IMG/VR virus record: IMGVR_UViG_3300006033_000016
Coordinates: 32,001-96,000 of that record
Source of the DNA: a virus
DNA length: 64,000 nucleotides
Direction: 5' to 3' (one strand)
The number at the start of each line of letters is the position of its first letter. Within the stretch, counting starts at the first letter, position 1. Below are positions 18,878-50,375 of this stretch, in pieces. The notes beneath the pieces were generated by a model. That model worked only from the letters and a program-made list of their open reading frames with translations. It made no database searches and was not told the origin of the DNA. A program made the position numbers and the translations under genes.

Positions 18878-18885
18878 AAACATAT

Positions 18886-19009
18886 GTGCTGACAGAATTG
18901 AAAAAGACGTAGTTACTGATGTCCTTCCATTAGACTAGATCTCCGGAGAGACCTCGGGAGTCGAACCCGAATCCCCAGTTTGGATTGTAGTCTTTCTCGC
19001 ATTCAGCAC
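18886..19009 (-). ncRNA. Y RNA-like (YrlA-type) RNA 2
   Basis: stem GTGCTGA/TCAGCAC; T arm TCGGG-TTCGACT-CCCGA, acceptor hairpin, then D arm TAGTCTAATGGAAGGAC (T before D). Confidence 0.88.
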
Positions 19010-24681: not shown

Positions 24682-25034
24682 AAATCACAGCCTACCAAGA
24701 TAAGGTGTTATTCCTTCACTAGTAGCTTTTTCTTCTAAGCTCTTTAGCGTGTCGGTCTCCTCGTCAGTTAGACGACGAACCCACACTGCCCCTGCTACGA
24801 TTACACTTCCGTGTGGCGTGACACACTCATACATAGAGTTTAGGTTCTCGTCAAAAGGAAATGTAGATACGACTCTGCACAGAAAAGTAGAACCGTTGCA
24901 TGATACTGCACAGGAGTCTCCTTTTTCCAAATTTCCTACAAAGTGTGTCATAACAAATGGCACCAGGTTTCGGTTACGCTCCGAACTCTTTTGATCTTCA
25001 GTCAAACGCTTTCACTAGATTAGCTTACCTGGCG

Positions 25035-25108: not shown

Positions 25109-25111
25109 AAA

Positions 25112-25235
25112 GTGCCAACAGGATTTATAAAGACGTTTGGACTATTGCTCTACCATTTGAGCTACCACATCGTTTCCGAGGTGGACTGGAATCGAACCAG
25201 CACGCGACAGTTGTAGTCTTTACAGCATTTGGCAC
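25112..25235 (-). ncRNA. Y RNA-like (YrlA-type) RNA 4
   Basis: stem GTGCCAA/TTGGCAC, AAGAC/GTCTT; T arm CTGG-TTCGATT-CCAG, acceptor hairpin, canonical D arm TAGCTCAAATGGTAGAGC. Confidence 0.88.
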
Positions 25236-27962: not shown

Positions 27963-27990
27963 TAGTGGAGCTGACGGGGATCGAACCCCA
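27963..27990 (-). pseudogene. 3' fragment of split tRNA-Ala
   Basis: GGGTTCGATCCCCGTCAGCTCCA: T loop plus acceptor 3' strand complementary to GGGGCTG at 28615. Confidence 0.8.
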
Positions 27991-28017
27991 TCTTTGTACC
28001 TAGACGAGTGTAGGAGC

Positions 28018-28551
28018 CTAGTGAATGCCCAACCGTCTTCGCCCCACACATGGGTTCGAATTTCCCCATGTTGGAGTTAAACTATGACAGTTTGGGCAAA
28101 GCAGCCTAAGATTTGATGGTACAGTATTTAGACAATTACCATCTATGTGGTCGACCTGAAGAGGTATGTTCCCCGTTACTTCGTTGACCTCAGCCCATCC
28201 GCATTTCTCGCACTTAGAATCTGCTCGGTCAAACAACCAACGTTTTACATGAGAGGAAAGCTGCTTCTGCGCATTGTTAATATGTCCTGAAACTTCTCCT
28301 GAAACCCATTTTTCGATGTATAGATTATACTGATAATCAAACTGGCATCTATTACTACAATAATGACTACGTTTGTTGGTTAGAGGAGTACTACATCGTA
28401 GGCAATTAGGGTGTGCAAGGTACGGATCAGTTTTTAACTTGTGCTTTACGAGCCAATAACGTATACGTCCTTTGCTGCAGCCTAAACGCTTAGCAATGTT
28501 CTGTATTGATAGTTTTTCGTTTACTAAAGATTCAAGAAGATCGTATTCCAC
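28018..28551 (-). CDS. HNH endonuclease with N-terminal HTH, inside split tRNA-Ala
   Basis: SIQNIAKRLGCS, CEKCG, LQVDHIDGN, NLRLLCPNCHS. Confidence 0.9.
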   Translation of the reverse strand: MEYDLLESLVNEKLSIQNIAKRLGCSKGRIRYWLVKHKLKTDPYLAHPNCLRCSTPLTNKRSHYCSNRCQFDYQYNLYIEKWVSGEVSGHINNAQKQLSSHVKRWLFDRADSKCEKCGWAEVNEVTGNIPLQVDHIDGNCLNTVPSNLRLLCPNCHSLTPTWGNSNPCVGRRRLGIH

Positions 28552-28590
28552 ACTTAAATCATAAGTGAGAGTAAGATCTCTTCTAACTTT

Positions 28591-28615
28591 ACTCTCCCAG
28601 CTGAGCTACAGCCCC
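28591..28615 (-). pseudogene. 5' fragment of split tRNA-Ala
   Basis: GGGGCTGTAGCTCAGCTGGGAGAG: canonical tRNA-Ala acceptor 5' strand and D arm. Confidence 0.85.
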
Positions 28616-31176: not shown

Positions 31177-31262
31177 TGGTAGGGATGGAGGGAGTCGAAC
31201 CCTCACGGCCTTTCGGCCACTGGATCCTTAGTCCAGTGCGTCTGCCATTCCGCCACATCCCT
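31177..31262 (-). tRNA. tRNA-Leu(AAG)
   Basis: CTGGA-CTAAGGA-TCCAG, long variable arm, ACCA end. Confidence 0.88.
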
Positions 31263-32085
31263 ATTTCATGAAATCACGCCAAGGACTACGTACCCGCTCT
31301 TAGCTTTCATCCCGTTGCATACACTAAGAATGTACGTTCCTTTTCGCTGACACAGGTATATGTTACGAGCATCAGGAGCATAATAGCTGGTAGGTAAAGG
31401 AACAGCCCACACTTCCGGTGGGTCCCACGGTCCTCTTACAAAGAGAGCTTCTCTATCCGTCAGCAGGGACTTTCTAACCTTGAGACAATATTCTTTTTGT
31501 TCTTCCGCAGACACTTCTGATTTGGTTCTAACGGAGAGACTTCTTACATGAGCCTCTAGCGTAGAAAGCCGACTCTCTAAGAGGGAGATCTTCTGCTCTA
31601 GCGGACGTCTCTCATCTTCTCTCTGACGTCGCGCCTCTTCCTCTGCTTGCTTGCGTCTCTCATTTTCCGCCTTCGCAATTCTGCGAGAAAGAGCGAGTTC
31701 TTCTGTTCTCCGATCACGATCCATCATCTCCGCTGCCCCCAGCGAGACCTGGCCCAGAGAAGAACACCCGCAAACTCTTTGATACGAGGATCGTTGTGTT
31801 GTAGGAGACAGCGCAACGTGTAGTCTATATCTTGTGTGGCTTCGTACAGCTTGTAGAACTCTGCCCGAACAGCAGACACAAATTCTTGGTCTATGTTCTG
31901 CGCAGTGGATAGAATGTTCCACCCAGACTCTTTTCCGTCAAGAATCAAAATAGAACAAGAAATGATAATACTTCTCTGCTGAACGCCCAGCAAGGGCTTA
32001 GCTTGTGCCTCATGTCTGCTGATAGAGGCAGCCATGCGTCTACGAAATGGGTGGTTTGAGGCTCTAGACATAAAACTGGCTTTCT

Positions 32086-33322: not shown

Positions 33323-33477
33323 TAGGTGACAGAGAATTGAACAATCTATCCTCCTTACCTTCACAAGGAAGGCAGTGGAGACGAGCACCTTGTTGCCTTG
33401 GTTGCCCTCACTAGCCCTCTCAGGGAGAGGACATCGCTACCTTAGGATCTTTATGTAGATCGTTCAGCATTCACCTA
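33323..33477 (-). ncRNA. Y RNA-like RNA 5 (non-tRNA apical domain)
   Basis: stem TAGGTGA/TCACCTA with the same GAATG...TACA and TCTGT motifs; three-hairpin apical domain without a T loop. Confidence 0.72.
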
Positions 33478-33481
33478 AAAA

Positions 33482-33967
33482 TCAGCTACATGGCTCCGGA
33501 GGTGTTTTCTTCTTAAGTCTGTACCTGGCCGCTGCCTCTTTATGATACAACTTACACAGGGTGCACCTACATTTATGTAGGTTGTATCCGCTACTAGTTC
33601 CATGATGGAACCCCTCTATACGAGGTGACCTAGTTTCTAGGGAGTGAACCTTACGCCGAAGGTCGTCCTCCGAAAGAAGAATAGGAGAAGGACACTCTAC
33701 ACCTGGTATATTGTGAATCTCACGGTGACAATTAGCACACAATAGAACAGTCTTGCTCACTTCTTCTGCGATCGAGGAAAAGCTTCTGAACAAACCCTTG
33801 TAGGACAGACCGAAGTCCTTGTCGCTTCCAGGGTGATGGAACTCCAAGGCAGCACTACATTTGTCATAGCCACAAATACGACACCGACCTCCAGCCAGCT
33901 TTACAATAGCTTTCTTTAGCCGTGAACGTCGTTCTCTAACGTAGATAGCATGTTCTCTTTTATTCAT
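33482..33967 (-). CDS. HNH endonuclease
   Basis: GGRCRICGY, ALEFHH, LLCANCHREIH, C-terminal HGT...CRCTLC. Confidence 0.88.
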   Translation of the reverse strand: MNKREHAIYVRERRSRLKKAIVKLAGGRCRICGYDKCSAALEFHHPGSDKDFGLSYKGLFRSFSSIAEEVSKTVLLCANCHREIHNIPGVECPSPILLSEDDLRRKVHSLETRSPRIEGFHHGTSSGYNLHKCRCTLCKLYHKEAAARYRLKKKTPPEPCS

Positions 33968-34014
33968 AGCACTATTTTACATTGAATAGTGCTTTAATCT
34001 AACACTAAGCTACG

Positions 34015-34089
34015 TGGCTCCGGGGGTAGGATTCGAACCTACGACCAATCGGTTAACAGCCGACCGCGCTACCGCTGCGCCACCCCGGA
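34015..34089 (-). tRNA. tRNA-Asn(GTT)
   Basis: GTCGG-CTGTTAA-CCGAT, GCCA end. Confidence 0.93.
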
Positions 34090-37178: not shown

Positions 37179-37360
37179 GGGTCTCCAAGATTAGAGAATA
37201 GACTAACGAAGGGATTGAGGGGTACTAGCCTCTTCCAGTTGGGCTACCTCCCCATAAAATGGCGGGGAGGGCAGGATTCGAACCTGCACCCGATCGTACC
37301 CATATTCAAGTTGAACTTGAACTTGTTCTCTTTCCCTAACTCAAGTCCCATGGACTTGAG
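37179..37360 (-). ncRNA. circularly permuted tRNA-like RNA A
   Basis: T arm GCAGG-TTCGAAT-CCTGC, CCTCCCC-GCCATTTTAT-GGGGAGG, D arm TAGCCCAACTGGAAGAGGC, stems GGGTAC/GTACCC and GAGAA/TTCTC. Confidence 0.78.
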
Positions 37361-47745: not shown

Positions 47746-48504
47746 TCAGTCGTCCTCTTCGTCGTCCCAGTCATCGAAGTCATCGTCGTCATCTTCGTCT
47801 ACTGGGGCCTTGGATTTGACGGGCGCCTTGGCAAGAGGCTTGGTAGGCGCTTTACGCGGCGGAGGAATGTCATCCTCTTCGTCGTCTTCGTCATCCTCAT
47901 CATCCTCAACGACCTTCTTAGGAGGGGCTTTGGACACCTTGACGGCTTTGCGGGGAGGTTCCTCCTCGTCCTCATCCTCGTCCTCATCCTCATCATCGGA
48001 AGGAGGCGGCGCAGTTTTCTTTGTGGGGGCTTTCGAAGCCTTTTTCGGCGGAGATTCCTCGTCCTCATCCTCGTCCTCATCCTCGTCCTGAGGAGAGGGA
48101 GCTGCTGACTTTTTAGTCAAAGGCTCAGTGGTTGTTGCCTTTGTAGCGACGGACGGAGTATCCTCTTCCTCGTCCGAAGGAACTTCTACAGGATTCTTTC
48201 GAGGGCGTCCTCTTCCCTTCTTAGAATCACTAGATTCCTTTTCTTCAGAGGAGGAGCTAGGAGTGCTGTTCTCTTGTGGAGAGGGTGAAGTTAGTGTATC
48301 AGAAGAGGGCACAGCTATGCCCTTGTAGGAGTCATGTGACTCCACTTCGTCGAGGCTGTTAAGCCCCATCAACATCAACATTCCTCTGATTTCATCAAGG
48401 TTTAGAATAGGCCCATTTTTTAGACTGACGTAGTAATTTCTCTTTACTATGGCTTCAATCAACAGAGATTGAAGTTTGGCGTAGTCGCTCTTTGACAAGG
48501 ACAT
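47746..48504 (-). CDS. acidic low-complexity protein with AT-hook
   Basis: KKGRGRPRK and repeated poly-D/E blocks alternating with PPKKA-type blocks. Confidence 0.7.
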   Translation of the reverse strand: MSLSKSDYAKLQSLLIEAIVKRNYYVSLKNGPILNLDEIRGMLMLMGLNSLDEVESHDSYKGIAVPSSDTLTSPSPQENSTPSSSSEEKESSDSKKGRGRPRKNPVEVPSDEEEDTPSVATKATTTEPLTKKSAAPSPQDEDEDEDEDEESPPKKASKAPTKKTAPPPSDDEDEDEDEDEEEPPRKAVKVSKAPPKKVVEDDEDDEDDEEDDIPPPRKAPTKPLAKAPVKSKAPVDEDDDDDFDDWDDEEDD

Positions 48505-48873
48505 GGACAGGCTCCTGTTAGGTGTAGGTGAGTCTTTTACAAGAAACTAGTTGGAAGAGGGTCTAAGAGACAGTAAGGAAAGAGTCAATTTTTCTGCGCC
48601 TTCTGTAGAAAAACAGACGGCCAGGTCGCACACCGATAGTAAGGACAAGTAAAGTACGCCAGACTTGCCAGAAGAGGGAAGTCCATCAAATTTTCTTCTA
48701 AGAGAAGAGAAAGAAGACGGATCACCATGTGACTCTAAAAGGGCGTCTAAACACATAGAGAAGGAAAGAAGGAAACCCTTTTCCACTCCGTTGGAATGGC
48801 GAGTTGTAAGATCGCTCACAGCGCTTACTATCTGTCTAAGTATATGGTAATCGTTTTCCATGAATACCATATA

Positions 48874-48902
48874 TGGTCGGGGCAGCCAGATTCGAACTGA
48901 CG
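48874..48902 (-). pseudogene. 3' fragment of split tRNA-Pro
   Basis: GTCAG-TTCGAAT-CTGGC-TGCCCCG-ACCA; acceptor strand complementary to CGGGGCA at 49477. Confidence 0.85.
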
Positions 48903-48922
48903 TTGTGTCTGTCCTAATCTTA

Positions 48923-48997
48923 TGGTCGAGGTGACAGGAGTCGAACCTGCTTGATCTAGTTCCCAAAACTAGCGACTGACCGTTAGCCTACACCTCG
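48923..48997 (-). tRNA. tRNA-Pro(TGG)
   Basis: CGAGGTG/CACCTCG, CTAGT-TTTGGGA-ACTAG, ACCA end. Confidence 0.9.
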
Positions 48998-49006
48998 ATG
49001 TGTAAT

Positions 49007-49444
49007 TTACAGAGCACTTATTCTAATGTATCCCCTTTCTCTGGCTGTTTTTCTTCTATGGCAGTTGGCACATAATATTTGACACTTTTTCACTTCTTCT
49101 TTTATCCTTCTAAGAGAACAGCCACTACCTACAAGGTTTGACACGTTTTCTATCTTAGTAGAAGGGTCTAGGTGGTCAAAGTCAAGTACTATGGGGTCGG
49201 ATTCGCCACAAGAAGCACACGGATTGGTTTTTAGTATGTTGAGTATATACTCGGTATTTCGCATCCTCAACTTAGCAAAGTTAGACTGCTTTCTTGCCAA
49301 CCTCAGTTCCTTGGTACCACTCCAATACCTACGGTCGTAGGATCTCTTGCACTCTCTACATTTAGAGAGATGCCTGTTTCTCTTTGTAAGATAAGGAAAT
49401 TCGTCTATTGGCTTTTCCACGTTACAAACTAAACAACGTTTCAC
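49007..49444 (-). CDS. HNH endonuclease
   Basis: CLVC...CREC, CASCGESDPIVLDFDH, KCQILCANCHRRKT. Confidence 0.9.
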   Translation of the reverse strand: MKRCLVCNVEKPIDEFPYLTKRNRHLSKCRECKRSYDRRYWSGTKELRLARKQSNFAKLRMRNTEYILNILKTNPCASCGESDPIVLDFDHLDPSTKIENVSNLVGSGCSLRRIKEEVKKCQILCANCHRRKTARERGYIRISAL

Positions 49445-49454
49445 AGAAATACCA

Positions 49455-49477
49455 TAACCAAGCTCAGCTATGCCCCG
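49455..49477 (-). pseudogene. 5' fragment of split tRNA-Pro
   Basis: CGGGGCATAGCTGAGCTTGGTTA: acceptor 5' strand and D loop. Confidence 0.8.
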
Positions 49478-49485
49478 ATATGTTT

Positions 49486-49561
49486 TGGTGACTCCAACGG
49501 GATTTGAACCCGTGTTAACGCCGTGAAAGGGCGCGGTCCTAGGCCTCTAGACGATGGAGCC
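49486..49561 (-). tRNA. tRNA-Glu(TTC)
   Basis: GCGCC-CTTTCAC-GGCGT, ACCA end. Confidence 0.93.
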
Positions 49562-49835
49562 AAGAAATACTACACGATACGAAAGTGTATGTCAAGTGAA
49601 GGATCAAAAATAGAGTCCACGACTTCAGGATAGCCGTTGTCTCGAACAAAGATATAACGACAAAGGTGAGGAAACGATTCTTCAGGAAAGAAGTCTATGA
49701 ATATTAGCACACCCCTGTGATCGTTGTCAGGATCAAATGTGCCCCTAAAGACCTGTCTATCTCGCGTGTCTTTGACAGAAGACATGGACAGCATAGAAGA
49801 ACTTACGTGTACCTTTCTACCGTCTAAGGTCTTCT

Positions 49836-50375
49836 TCATCGAGTAAGCTCTTCAAACCGGGTAAGAAAAAGTTCCTGGGCTTGCGCTGGAAGAAGTGGGT
49901 CATTAACATTTAGCCCTGGAGGAGGGCTGGCATTCAGGTAGGAAAACTTCAACTCTCCAACGGGGTACAGAAGATCTCTGGCTTCTGCCATAAGAACAGA
50001 GTTATCTGCCTCATGCACCTCTTCCGGAAGGTCCAACGGAAGGCCGAACTTACGAGCTATGGATTCCCATATGCGAGCCTCTAATTCCTCAAAGTCTGGC
50101 ATAAATCTTTTGATGGGTCTAATAAGATCTCCGACATATGCCTCAGTTGCGTCGTGAAGAAGAGCTGCTAAGGCGTTTTCGGGAGAGACGTATTTAGAGC
50201 AATGCACGCTGTGCTCTGCCACGGAGTAAAATAATCTACAGTGACCGTTGAATCGGCAAAGCTTGGATAGGGCGGTAGCTATATCGTGTATGTCTATAGA
50301 GGCCTGTAGGTTGTCCCTAAATGGGTAAAACCTGGCTCCGCTATACAGTGTGAACCAGCTATCTTCTCTGTTCAT
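49836..50375 (-). CDS. HD-domain 5'-deoxynucleotidase-like (YfbR/YfdR family)
   Basis: CRFNGH, YSVAEHS, LLHDATEAYVGD. Confidence 0.9.
   Translation of the reverse strand: MNREDSWFTLYSGARFYPFRDNLQASIDIHDIATALSKLCRFNGHCRLFYSVAEHSVHCSKYVSPENALAALLHDATEAYVGDLIRPIKRFMPDFEELEARIWESIARKFGLPLDLPEEVHEADNSVLMAEARDLLYPVGELKFSYLNASPPPGLNVNDPLLPAQAQELFLTRFEELTR

Follow-up and report, generated by a model that had tools for sequence, protein, structure and literature searches.

We analyzed a window of 64,000 nucleotides (nt; positions 32,001–96,000 of the IMG/VR virus record IMGVR_UViG_3300006033_000016), in which a gene for an HNH endonuclease and a complete tRNA-Pro gene lie between the two ends of another tRNA-Pro gene. 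The whole record measures 132,998 bases, and its completeness of 34% according to CheckV identifies it as a fragment of a jumbo phage. The arrangement was probably produced when a copy of a free-standing HNH homing endonuclease gene and its linked tRNA-Pro(TGG) entered a tRNA-Pro gene resident in this phage, the ends of which (at least 21 nt on the 5′ side and at least 28 nt on the 3′ side) persist as dead relics. This reading draws on the anatomy of the locus, on a family-wide linkage of the HNH gene to tRNA genes, on other split tRNA genes, and on alleles of cultured phages that possess or lack the HNH gene and differ by recoded tRNAs, all of which are directly observed.

Analysis of the minus strand reveals the order tRNA-Glu, 5′ piece of the outer tRNA-Pro, HNH open reading frame (ORF), inner tRNA-Pro(tgg), spacer, 3′ piece of the outer tRNA-Pro and a further ORF (Table 1). 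The original prediction, made from the letters of the DNA, had described a 5′ piece, an HNH gene, a complete tRNA-Pro(TGG) and a matching 3′ piece in this order, and its coordinates proved exact; the inner tRNA is called by both ARAGORN and Rfam, and the HNH ORF matches phrog_2255. The outer 5′ piece starts at 49477, 8 bases after tRNA-Glu, with CGGGGCA followed by TA and the D-arm-like GCTGAGCTTGGT. TGCCCCG in the 3′ piece is the exact complement of CGGGGCA, the two pieces pairing at 7 of 7 positions, and the outer T arm has 5 pairs and the loop TTCGAAT. Nine nt separate the stop codon of the HNH ORF from the inner tRNA.

The outer pair escapes detection as a tRNA both by Rfam (E values up to 10) and by ARAGORN (introns allowed; default and 90% thresholds), from which we conclude that the outer gene is broken; with or without introns, neither program finds in it the contiguous cloverleaf of a functional tRNA gene. 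Its first 21 nt are identical at 20 positions to a tRNA-Pro(tgg) of a viral contig (L085), and the sole mismatch is compensated in the 3′ strand. Together with C1–G72 and A73, and with the synteny described below, this likeness points to a proline gene. Its anticodon is not assignable, since ARAGORN accepts many computed joins of the two pieces, with different anticodons. In a related contig of 392 kb (L002), a homologue of the 89/95-residue ORF is followed by tRNA-Glu(ttc), Pro(cgg), Pro(ggg), Pro(tgg) and a homologue of the downstream ORF, without an HNH gene. The outer pieces are closest to the first Pro gene of this block (18/21 and 18/25 positions by our own count). The synteny with L002 and the likeness to L002 and L085 thus identify the outer gene as the resident first tRNA-Pro of the block, next after tRNA-Glu. 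An HD-domain gene upstream has three jumbo-phage relatives with 52–56% identity. According to ARAGORN, the 392-kb relative also has a transfer-messenger RNA gene within its tRNA region (L174, 532–929; genome G001).

The position of the break can be read in two ways. If it lies in the anticodon loop, the 5′ piece may extend to 49445 and the last 16 nt of the spacer would be the old anticodon loop, the 3′ strand of its stem and the variable loop, assuming loops of 10 nt (D) and 4 nt (variable). In this register the D stem has 4 pairs, 4 of the 5 positions of the anticodon stem are paired, and positions 35–36 read GG, as fits proline. In simulations, the combination of all three has a P of 0.0014, against 0.029 if the D stem is disregarded; the D stem counts little because three of its pairs are G–T. 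Favoured over this is the reading that the middle of the outer gene was probably lost, as its ends appear canonical and its middle aberrant. At 16 positions, the 20 nt after outer position 21 agree with a 20-nt stretch beginning 3 nt past the outer CCA, and the exact 9-mer common to both copies of this direct repeat occurs only 3 times in the 64-kb window. On either reading the outer gene is broken. A separate 12-nt inverted repeat (92% complementary; 48841–48852 and 48862–48873) flanks the start codon of the downstream ORF and overlaps the second copy of the direct repeat.

The 145-residue product of the HNH ORF matches phrog_2255, annotated 'HNH endonuclease', with an E value of 2.9e-37, and 15 further nuclease PHROGs; the match to Pfam PF01844 (E 0.091, 13.4 bits) misses the Pfam cut-off of 21.4 bits. 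An alignment of 15 sequences, the ORF and 14 relatives, reveals C76, C79, D90, H91, C125, N127, C128 and H129 as invariant, so that both CxxC zinc pairs and the D-H…N…H catalytic residues are retained. N-termini of the form MKxCxxC in the homologues support the GTG start, which abuts the outer 5′ piece. The AlphaFold model has a pLDDT (predicted local distance difference test) of 94.2. No significant relative was found in the PDB by sequence, nor by Foldseek at E values up to 0.001; the weak Foldseek matches are HNH nucleases. The nearest homologues (P0002 and P0003) are about 50% identical, and the 90% cluster members are P0121–P0124.

In four further metagenomes, from sludge, wastewater and an unlabelled source, contigs are 98–100% identical to the locus and bridge each of its junctions. 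They contain no indel and no joint of an empty allele, which is not proof of its absence as contigs drop rare variants. The HNH ORF is open in all four populations, with five substitutions, of which 2 are synonymous and 3 are not. Since every junction is bridged without an indel in four metagenomes, the cassette arrangement is real, stable and widespread.

We further analyzed the surroundings of homologues of the HNH gene in the best 80 viral-contig loci and in metagenome loci among the matches listed, 79 of which have enough flanking sequence (159 in total). A tRNA gene lies within 1.5 kb of the homologue at 53 of the 80 viral loci. A tRNA gene on the same strand starts within 100 nt 3′ of the HNH gene at 70 of the 159 loci (32/80 viral, 38/79 metagenome), and one lies within 200 nt 5′ of it at 31 of the 80 viral loci. 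At 15 of those 70 loci the HNH ORF ends exactly 10 nt inside the tRNA gene, the overlapping stop codon being T8-A9-G10 of the tRNA in the loci read in sequence. Where tRNAs flank the HNH gene, the pair is of one isotype in 17 of 37 cases, compared with 51 of 235 other adjacent pairs (Fisher p 0.0035). On a FastTree phylogeny of the HNH proteins (146 of 161 rows, 15 short or interrupted matches being left out), the downstream isotype requires 37 changes versus 47.5 ± 1.6 in shuffled data, and none of 1000 shuffles gave 37 or fewer. As kin share labels, this clustering indicates persistence of the isotype and not co-evolution. The rows nearest to the HNH protein of the window, L176 and L096, are both of the arrangement Pro–HNH–Pro, a placement without branch support. 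The L002 genome encodes six homologues, and in genomes of relatives several homologues stand directly 5′ of tRNAs. These counts support the conclusion that the HNH family is tied to tRNA genes.

Cultured phages provide alleles with and without the HNH gene. Searches by tblastn recover the family in 181 phage records (Streptomyces 33, Mycobacterium 29, Escherichia 27, Pseudomonas 26, and others), including PegLeg gp102 (Mycobacterium) and JimJam gp109 and PumpkinSpice gp108 (both Streptomyces), which are 38–43% identical to the protein of the window. No homologue of this protein was recovered from phiKZ (NC_004629) at E values up to 0.001. The HNH gene of PegLeg overlaps a tRNA by 10 nt according to its annotation. 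In JimJam, a tRNA-Pro(tgg) is followed after 47 nt by the HNH gene and by a second tRNA-Pro(tgg) that overlaps the HNH gene by 10 nt, while SaltySpitoon, which is without the HNH gene, has two tRNA-Pro genes 22 nt apart. The flanks of these two alleles are 98.9% identical. About 15 further records (97–99% identity) also lack the HNH gene by the match table, SaltySpitoon being the one read in sequence. JimJam and SaltySpitoon do not differ in the first tRNA-Pro or in the final (3′) third of the second, and outside the insert the remaining aligned stretch is without differences. The second tRNA-Pro of JimJam has 7 substitutions and an insertion of one base. These changes all fall within the D loop, the variable loop or the anticodon stem, where both strands are altered in a compensatory manner, such that the stem is paired in both alleles. 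PumpkinSpice has another related HNH gene at the same site together with a wholly different tRNA-Pro(tgg), and homology resumes exactly at the 3′ end of this tRNA. Judged by their sequences, these recoded or replaced tRNA-Pro genes look as a cleavage-resistant replacement would be expected to look, and the alleles bear the signature expected of a homing endonuclease that would target the adjacent tRNA gene while its own allele is immune. In two Streptomyces phages, additional features were observed. PumpkinSpice (L260) contains at about 845–960, between its tRNA-Pro gene 107 and the HNH gene 108, an unannotated tRNA-like stretch with a T arm that ARAGORN does not call, and KentuckyRacer (L261) carries at 1169–1612, elsewhere in the corresponding region, another annotated HNH gene, which follows both tRNA-Pro genes and overlaps the start of a nucleotidyltransferase gene.

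Split tRNA genes were sought with a detector that requires a T arm outside called tRNAs, a 7/7 acceptor complement 5′ of the HNH gene and a T at position 8. Besides the case of the window it recovers two cases among 80 viral loci and one among 80 metagenome loci, compared with 0.1 and 0.05 matches per 80 loci in controls with shuffled upstream flanks. Locus L091 (1420–2220) is a second nested case, with threonine in threonine: the 5′ part of a tRNA-Thr(tgt), including its whole anticodon arm, is followed by the HNH gene, by a second, complete tRNA-Thr(tgt) of different sequence, by a small ORF and by a T arm with acceptor strand. At L107 (325–835) a tRNA-Phe, and at L188 (1941–2442) a tRNA-Pro directly after tRNA-Glu, are split by an HNH gene alone, without a replacement tRNA. 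The 3′ break points at these three loci lie near the variable loop or the T stem, and the 5′ break points vary. The window itself holds a split tRNA-Ala (27963–28615, minus strand). Its 5′ part (28615–28591; acceptor and D arm) and its 3′ part (27990–27963; T arm and acceptor 3′ strand, with a G3–T70 pair and no CCA after it) flank a 177-residue ORF with helix-turn-helix (HTH) and HNH parts (28551–28018), and no inner tRNA lies between them. This HTH-HNH protein is absent from the tblastn matches of the Pro-linked HNH protein in the phage record. In a further case of the window, an intact tRNA-Asn is followed by an HNH-like ORF and then by a second copy of the 3′ end of tRNA-Asn with its trailer; the resulting 37-nt repeat (33467–33503 and 33991–34027, 78% identical) brackets the ORF, whose product is a weak paralogue of the Pro-linked HNH protein (E 0.002). 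Split tRNAs thus recur at L091, L107, L188 and the Ala case besides the Pro locus. The recurring mechanism that the original prediction had surmised from the Ala and Asn cases is not supported by them: their architectures are unlike that of the Pro locus, and the HNH protein of the Ala case is of another type. The pattern of half, HNH, tRNA and half, put forward there as one to look for in phage genomes, is found nested at L091, and without the inner tRNA at L107 and L188.

From these patterns we infer the cleavage specificity of the enzyme, the resistance of the inner tRNA gene and the order of events at the locus. The targets of the family would be tRNA genes, cleaved in the region of the anticodon stem and variable loop, and the break would be repaired from a donor in which the nuclease gene stands next to a tRNA gene of the same kind, whose cut site differs and which may hence be resistant. 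At a homologous site the resident tRNA would be overwritten cleanly, as in the Streptomyces phages. At a site without flanking homology the cassette would be joined illegitimately and the ends of the target would stay in place, giving the nested layout, unless a later rearrangement left the stumps. The imported tRNA-Pro(TGG) would keep proline decoding intact.

Several observations weigh against such an import. The insert is not clean: the would-be 3′ strand of the D stem and 5′ strand of the anticodon stem are copy A of the 20-nt border repeat, whose copy B lies past the outer CCA, and a single simple insertion does not predict this repeat. The destruction of the target gene, as originally predicted, therefore stands in so far as the outer gene is broken and uncalled, and not as a clean interruption, its middle being lost or unrecognisable and its borders carrying the repeat. 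A replacement tRNA, held to be part of the cassette, is present in the window and at L091, that is, in 2 of 5 split genes, and is not obligatory, as L107, L188 and the Ala case have none. The inner tRNA resembles a tRNA-Pro(tgg) of a relative (L004) that has no HNH gene nearby; it could therefore be the resident gene rather than an import, and, if imported, would come from the same broad phage group. In the JimJam comparison, the indel consists of the HNH gene and part of a tRNA and not of the HNH gene and a whole extra tRNA. The loci counted above are not phylogenetically independent and include near-duplicates (for example L131/L133/L149/L154). Finally, no HNH-less allele of this locus was found in viral or metagenome contigs. 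The exact pattern of the uninterrupted outer gene has no match in viral contigs, and a degenerate pattern has 3, all in unrelated tRNA-Pro genes, none of them close. With the 89-residue neighbouring ORF as anchor, the L002 contig alone is recovered from viral contigs and nothing from metagenome contigs, the pattern of the inner tRNA finds the L004 contig alone in viral contigs, and megablast against INPHARED phages gave no match. The uninterrupted allele expected in relatives was thus not found for this locus and is available for the homologue in Streptomyces phages, with flanks about 99% identical.

The border repeat is the main support for a different history, which we regard as a less likely but serious competitor. 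An ancestral tandem array of outer tRNA-Pro, HNH gene and inner tRNA-Pro would have suffered nuclease breaks, followed by duplication and deletion between short repeats that left the stumps, the 5′ stump deriving from one copy and the 3′ stump from a duplicated copy, in a manner resembling the SegB-driven amplification of segB with tRNA-Tyr. The two copies of the repeat (16/20 identical) begin precisely at outer position 22 and 3 nt past the outer CCA, an intact tRNA-Pro, the HNH gene and a tRNA-Pro follow one another in JimJam and in the closest relatives of the HNH protein, and the HNH-like ORF of the Asn case is bracketed by a duplicated tRNA 3′ end and trailer. SegB, moreover, promotes amplification through breaks in tRNA genes (PMC13096335). 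Against this, at least two events are needed, a duplication and a 58-nt deletion, and the other split cases have no border repeats. Repeats of similar strength also arise by chance in AT-rich stretches (3 families at L188, for example), which makes the border repeat notable for its position only.

That the outer tRNA works after all, its insert being removed as RNA or its halves pairing through the acceptor stem and being sealed by RNA repair enzymes of the phage, appears very unlikely. Such a function would agree with the 7/7 acceptor pairing, the perfect T arm, the encoded CCA and the canonical register described above, in which the anticodon stem pairs at 4 of 5 positions with GG at 35–36 (P 0.029, or 0.0014 with the D stem). 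A possible precedent is provided by the 'enigmatic introns' that PMC6784885 reports in tRNAs of Lak megaphages and one of which may itself contain a tRNA. Against a working outer tRNA, its supposed D stem has three G–T pairs, a copied trailer accounts better for these letters, and no helix between the ends of the insert is apparent by eye. Position 37 would be A, and tRNA-Pro genes usually have G there. Rfam at E values up to 10 finds no group I intron or other ribozyme family, and the insert offers no space for a ribozyme: besides the ORF and the inner tRNA it has about 15–35 nt, according to the placement of the breaks. A ribozyme-free 'intron', in which the inner tRNA would supply the cuts of RNase P and of 3′-end processing and the trimmed halves, kept in contact by their perfect acceptor stem, would be sealed by RNA repair enzymes of the phage into a second working tRNA-Pro, is likewise hardly to be expected; if it existed, the split tRNAs of archaea would have their counterpart in a bacterial virus. 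Two splicing classes were tried and rejected. For a group I intron no P3–P8 core was found, the Rfam scan of 48000–50200 at E values up to 10 giving only the two tRNAs and chance-level matches, and splicing of the bulge-helix-bulge (BHB) type was rejected by eye only. Least credible of all is a mere chance resemblance of the flanks to tRNA ends. The pieces are indeed short (21 and 28 nt), yet they pair at 7 of 7 positions, match a real tRNA-Pro at 20 of 21, have a canonical T loop and the ACCA of the other tRNAs of this phage, and occupy a site syntenic with a Pro block, against a background of 0.05–0.1 matches per 80 loci in shuffled controls.

Table 1. Features of the nested tRNA-Pro locus in minus-strand order (coordinates of the 64,000-nt window)
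Feature	Positions	Strand	Basis or remark
Promoter-like site TTGACA-17 nt-TAGTAT, 5′ of tRNA-Glu	49567..49595	-	Consensus scan only
tRNA-Glu(ttc), intact upstream neighbour	49486..49561	-	ARAGORN; Rfam 55.8 bits; synteny with L002
Outer tRNA-Pro 5′ piece, certain part: acceptor CGGGGCA, T8 A9, D-stem 5′ strand, D loop	49457..49477	-	
Direct-repeat copy A, from outer-tRNA position 22, spans HNH start codon	49437..49456	-	16/20 identical to copy B
HNH endonuclease ORF, 145 residues, GTG start	49007..49444	-	N-terminal Cys4 finger; C-terminal CxxC...DH...CxxCH core
Inner complete tRNA-Pro(tgg), CCA encoded	48923..48997	-	ARAGORN; Rfam tRNA 52.4 bits
Spacer, 21 nt, inner tRNA to outer T arm	48902..48922	-	
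Outer tRNA-Pro 3′ piece: T arm, acceptor TGCCCCG, A73, CCA	48874..48901	-	
Direct-repeat copy B, 3 nt past outer CCA, spans start codon of downstream ORF	48852..48871	-	
Downstream ORF, 104 residues, no family match; L002 homologue follows Pro block	48547..48861	-	Marks the end of the old tRNA block

The promoter-like site 5′ of tRNA-Glu and the lack of any terminator-like site in a consensus scan downstream of it as far as 48300 weakly suggest that the whole block may be a single transcript, the HNH gene possibly being co-transcribed with the tRNAs. The record as a whole has 20 tRNAs by ARAGORN, all on the minus strand. Elsewhere in the window, 24961–25033 (minus strand) is a tRNA by Rfam (42.5 bits) and not by ARAGORN, and 31177–31262 (minus strand) is a tRNA-Leu with the anticodon aag; such an anticodon, with A at position 34, is unusual for tRNA sets of the bacterial type. 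Three matches to the Rfam family YrlA (Y RNA-like) fall below its gathering score of 69 (25109–25235, 18883–19009 and 37202–37312, minus strand; 51.2, 44.3 and 28.9 bits), and each carries a T-arm motif.

In homing by the seg and mob genes of T4, the target is an adjacent gene and the donor allele is immune through sequence differences. The paper on T4 mobE reportedly describes intron-less homing by a free-standing endonuclease, including gene splitting, and Aeh1 nrdA is said to be a gene split by such an endonuclease. The locus of the window resembles these systems, as a free-standing endonuclease gene has landed in or beside its probable target gene and immunity would be conferred by differences of the donor allele. 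It differs in that the target is a tRNA gene, the function of which would be kept by the second complete gene of the cassette and not by assembly of split products. In the tRNA arrays of actinophages, HNH genes have been annotated for a long time. The actinophage HNH proteins of PegLeg, JimJam and PumpkinSpice belong to the same family as that of the window, their ORFs likewise abut or overlap the 5′ end of a tRNA, and HNH-less alleles exist; there, in contrast, the resident tRNA is overwritten or recoded cleanly, with no relic halves in the three loci examined. A role of HNH genes of tRNA arrays in the tRNA diversity of actinophages has been suggested in PMC6409571.

Among free-standing nucleases encoded within phage tRNA arrays, SegB of T4 and T6 offers the closest known parallel (PMC2330249, PMC13096335). 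SegB cuts within tRNA genes at a T-arm motif, homing replaces the tRNA region of the recipient, and the segB gene is inherited with flanking tRNA genes while tRNA markers of the recipient are lost (PMC2330249); the gene is widely found alongside tRNAs, the breaks made by SegB give rise to duplications, and it amplifies itself together with tRNA-Tyr (PMC2330249, PMC13096335). SegB is a GIY-YIG enzyme, whereas the protein of the window is an HNH protein (phrog_2255) that has no GIY-YIG domain and whose family matches are all of the HNH or endonuclease VII type; it would thus work like SegB without being a member of the Seg family. Its site would be the anticodon stem or variable loop in place of the T-arm motif, as suggested by the recoded tract of JimJam and by where the split genes are broken. 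A tRNA gene left in two pieces around a cassette does not figure in what these accounts say of SegB. The introns of Lak megaphages (Devoto et al. 2019, PMC6784885) are similar in placing a tRNA-like gene inside a phage tRNA gene and in being present or absent among related phages; the part of that report covering them treats them as introns and mentions no nuclease, whereas in the window most of the insert is taken up by the HNH gene and the outer gene appears to be dead. Among the titles and abstracts of the papers listed by our literature searches, we found no account of a cassette of HNH gene and tRNA nested in a broken tRNA gene, or of a recoded anticodon stem.

The arrays of tRNA genes in phages are now viewed as a counter-defence against anticodon nucleases of the host, and the gain, loss and diversification of their members are poorly understood. 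The family described here is widespread and physically welded to tRNA genes, often with its stop codon inside the tRNA, and one isotype is kept beside it over evolutionary time. Its footprints are of three kinds, namely clean overwriting, recoded anticodon stems, and split or nested tRNA relics. For the annotation of phage genomes, this means that tRNA stumps beside HNH genes are to be taken as scars and not as novel RNAs. Taken together, the findings offer a concrete and testable model in which the turnover of phage tRNAs would be driven by selfish nucleases that reshuffle the tRNA sets of phages, and for which JimJam, PumpkinSpice and SaltySpitoon provide a cultured Streptomyces-phage system.

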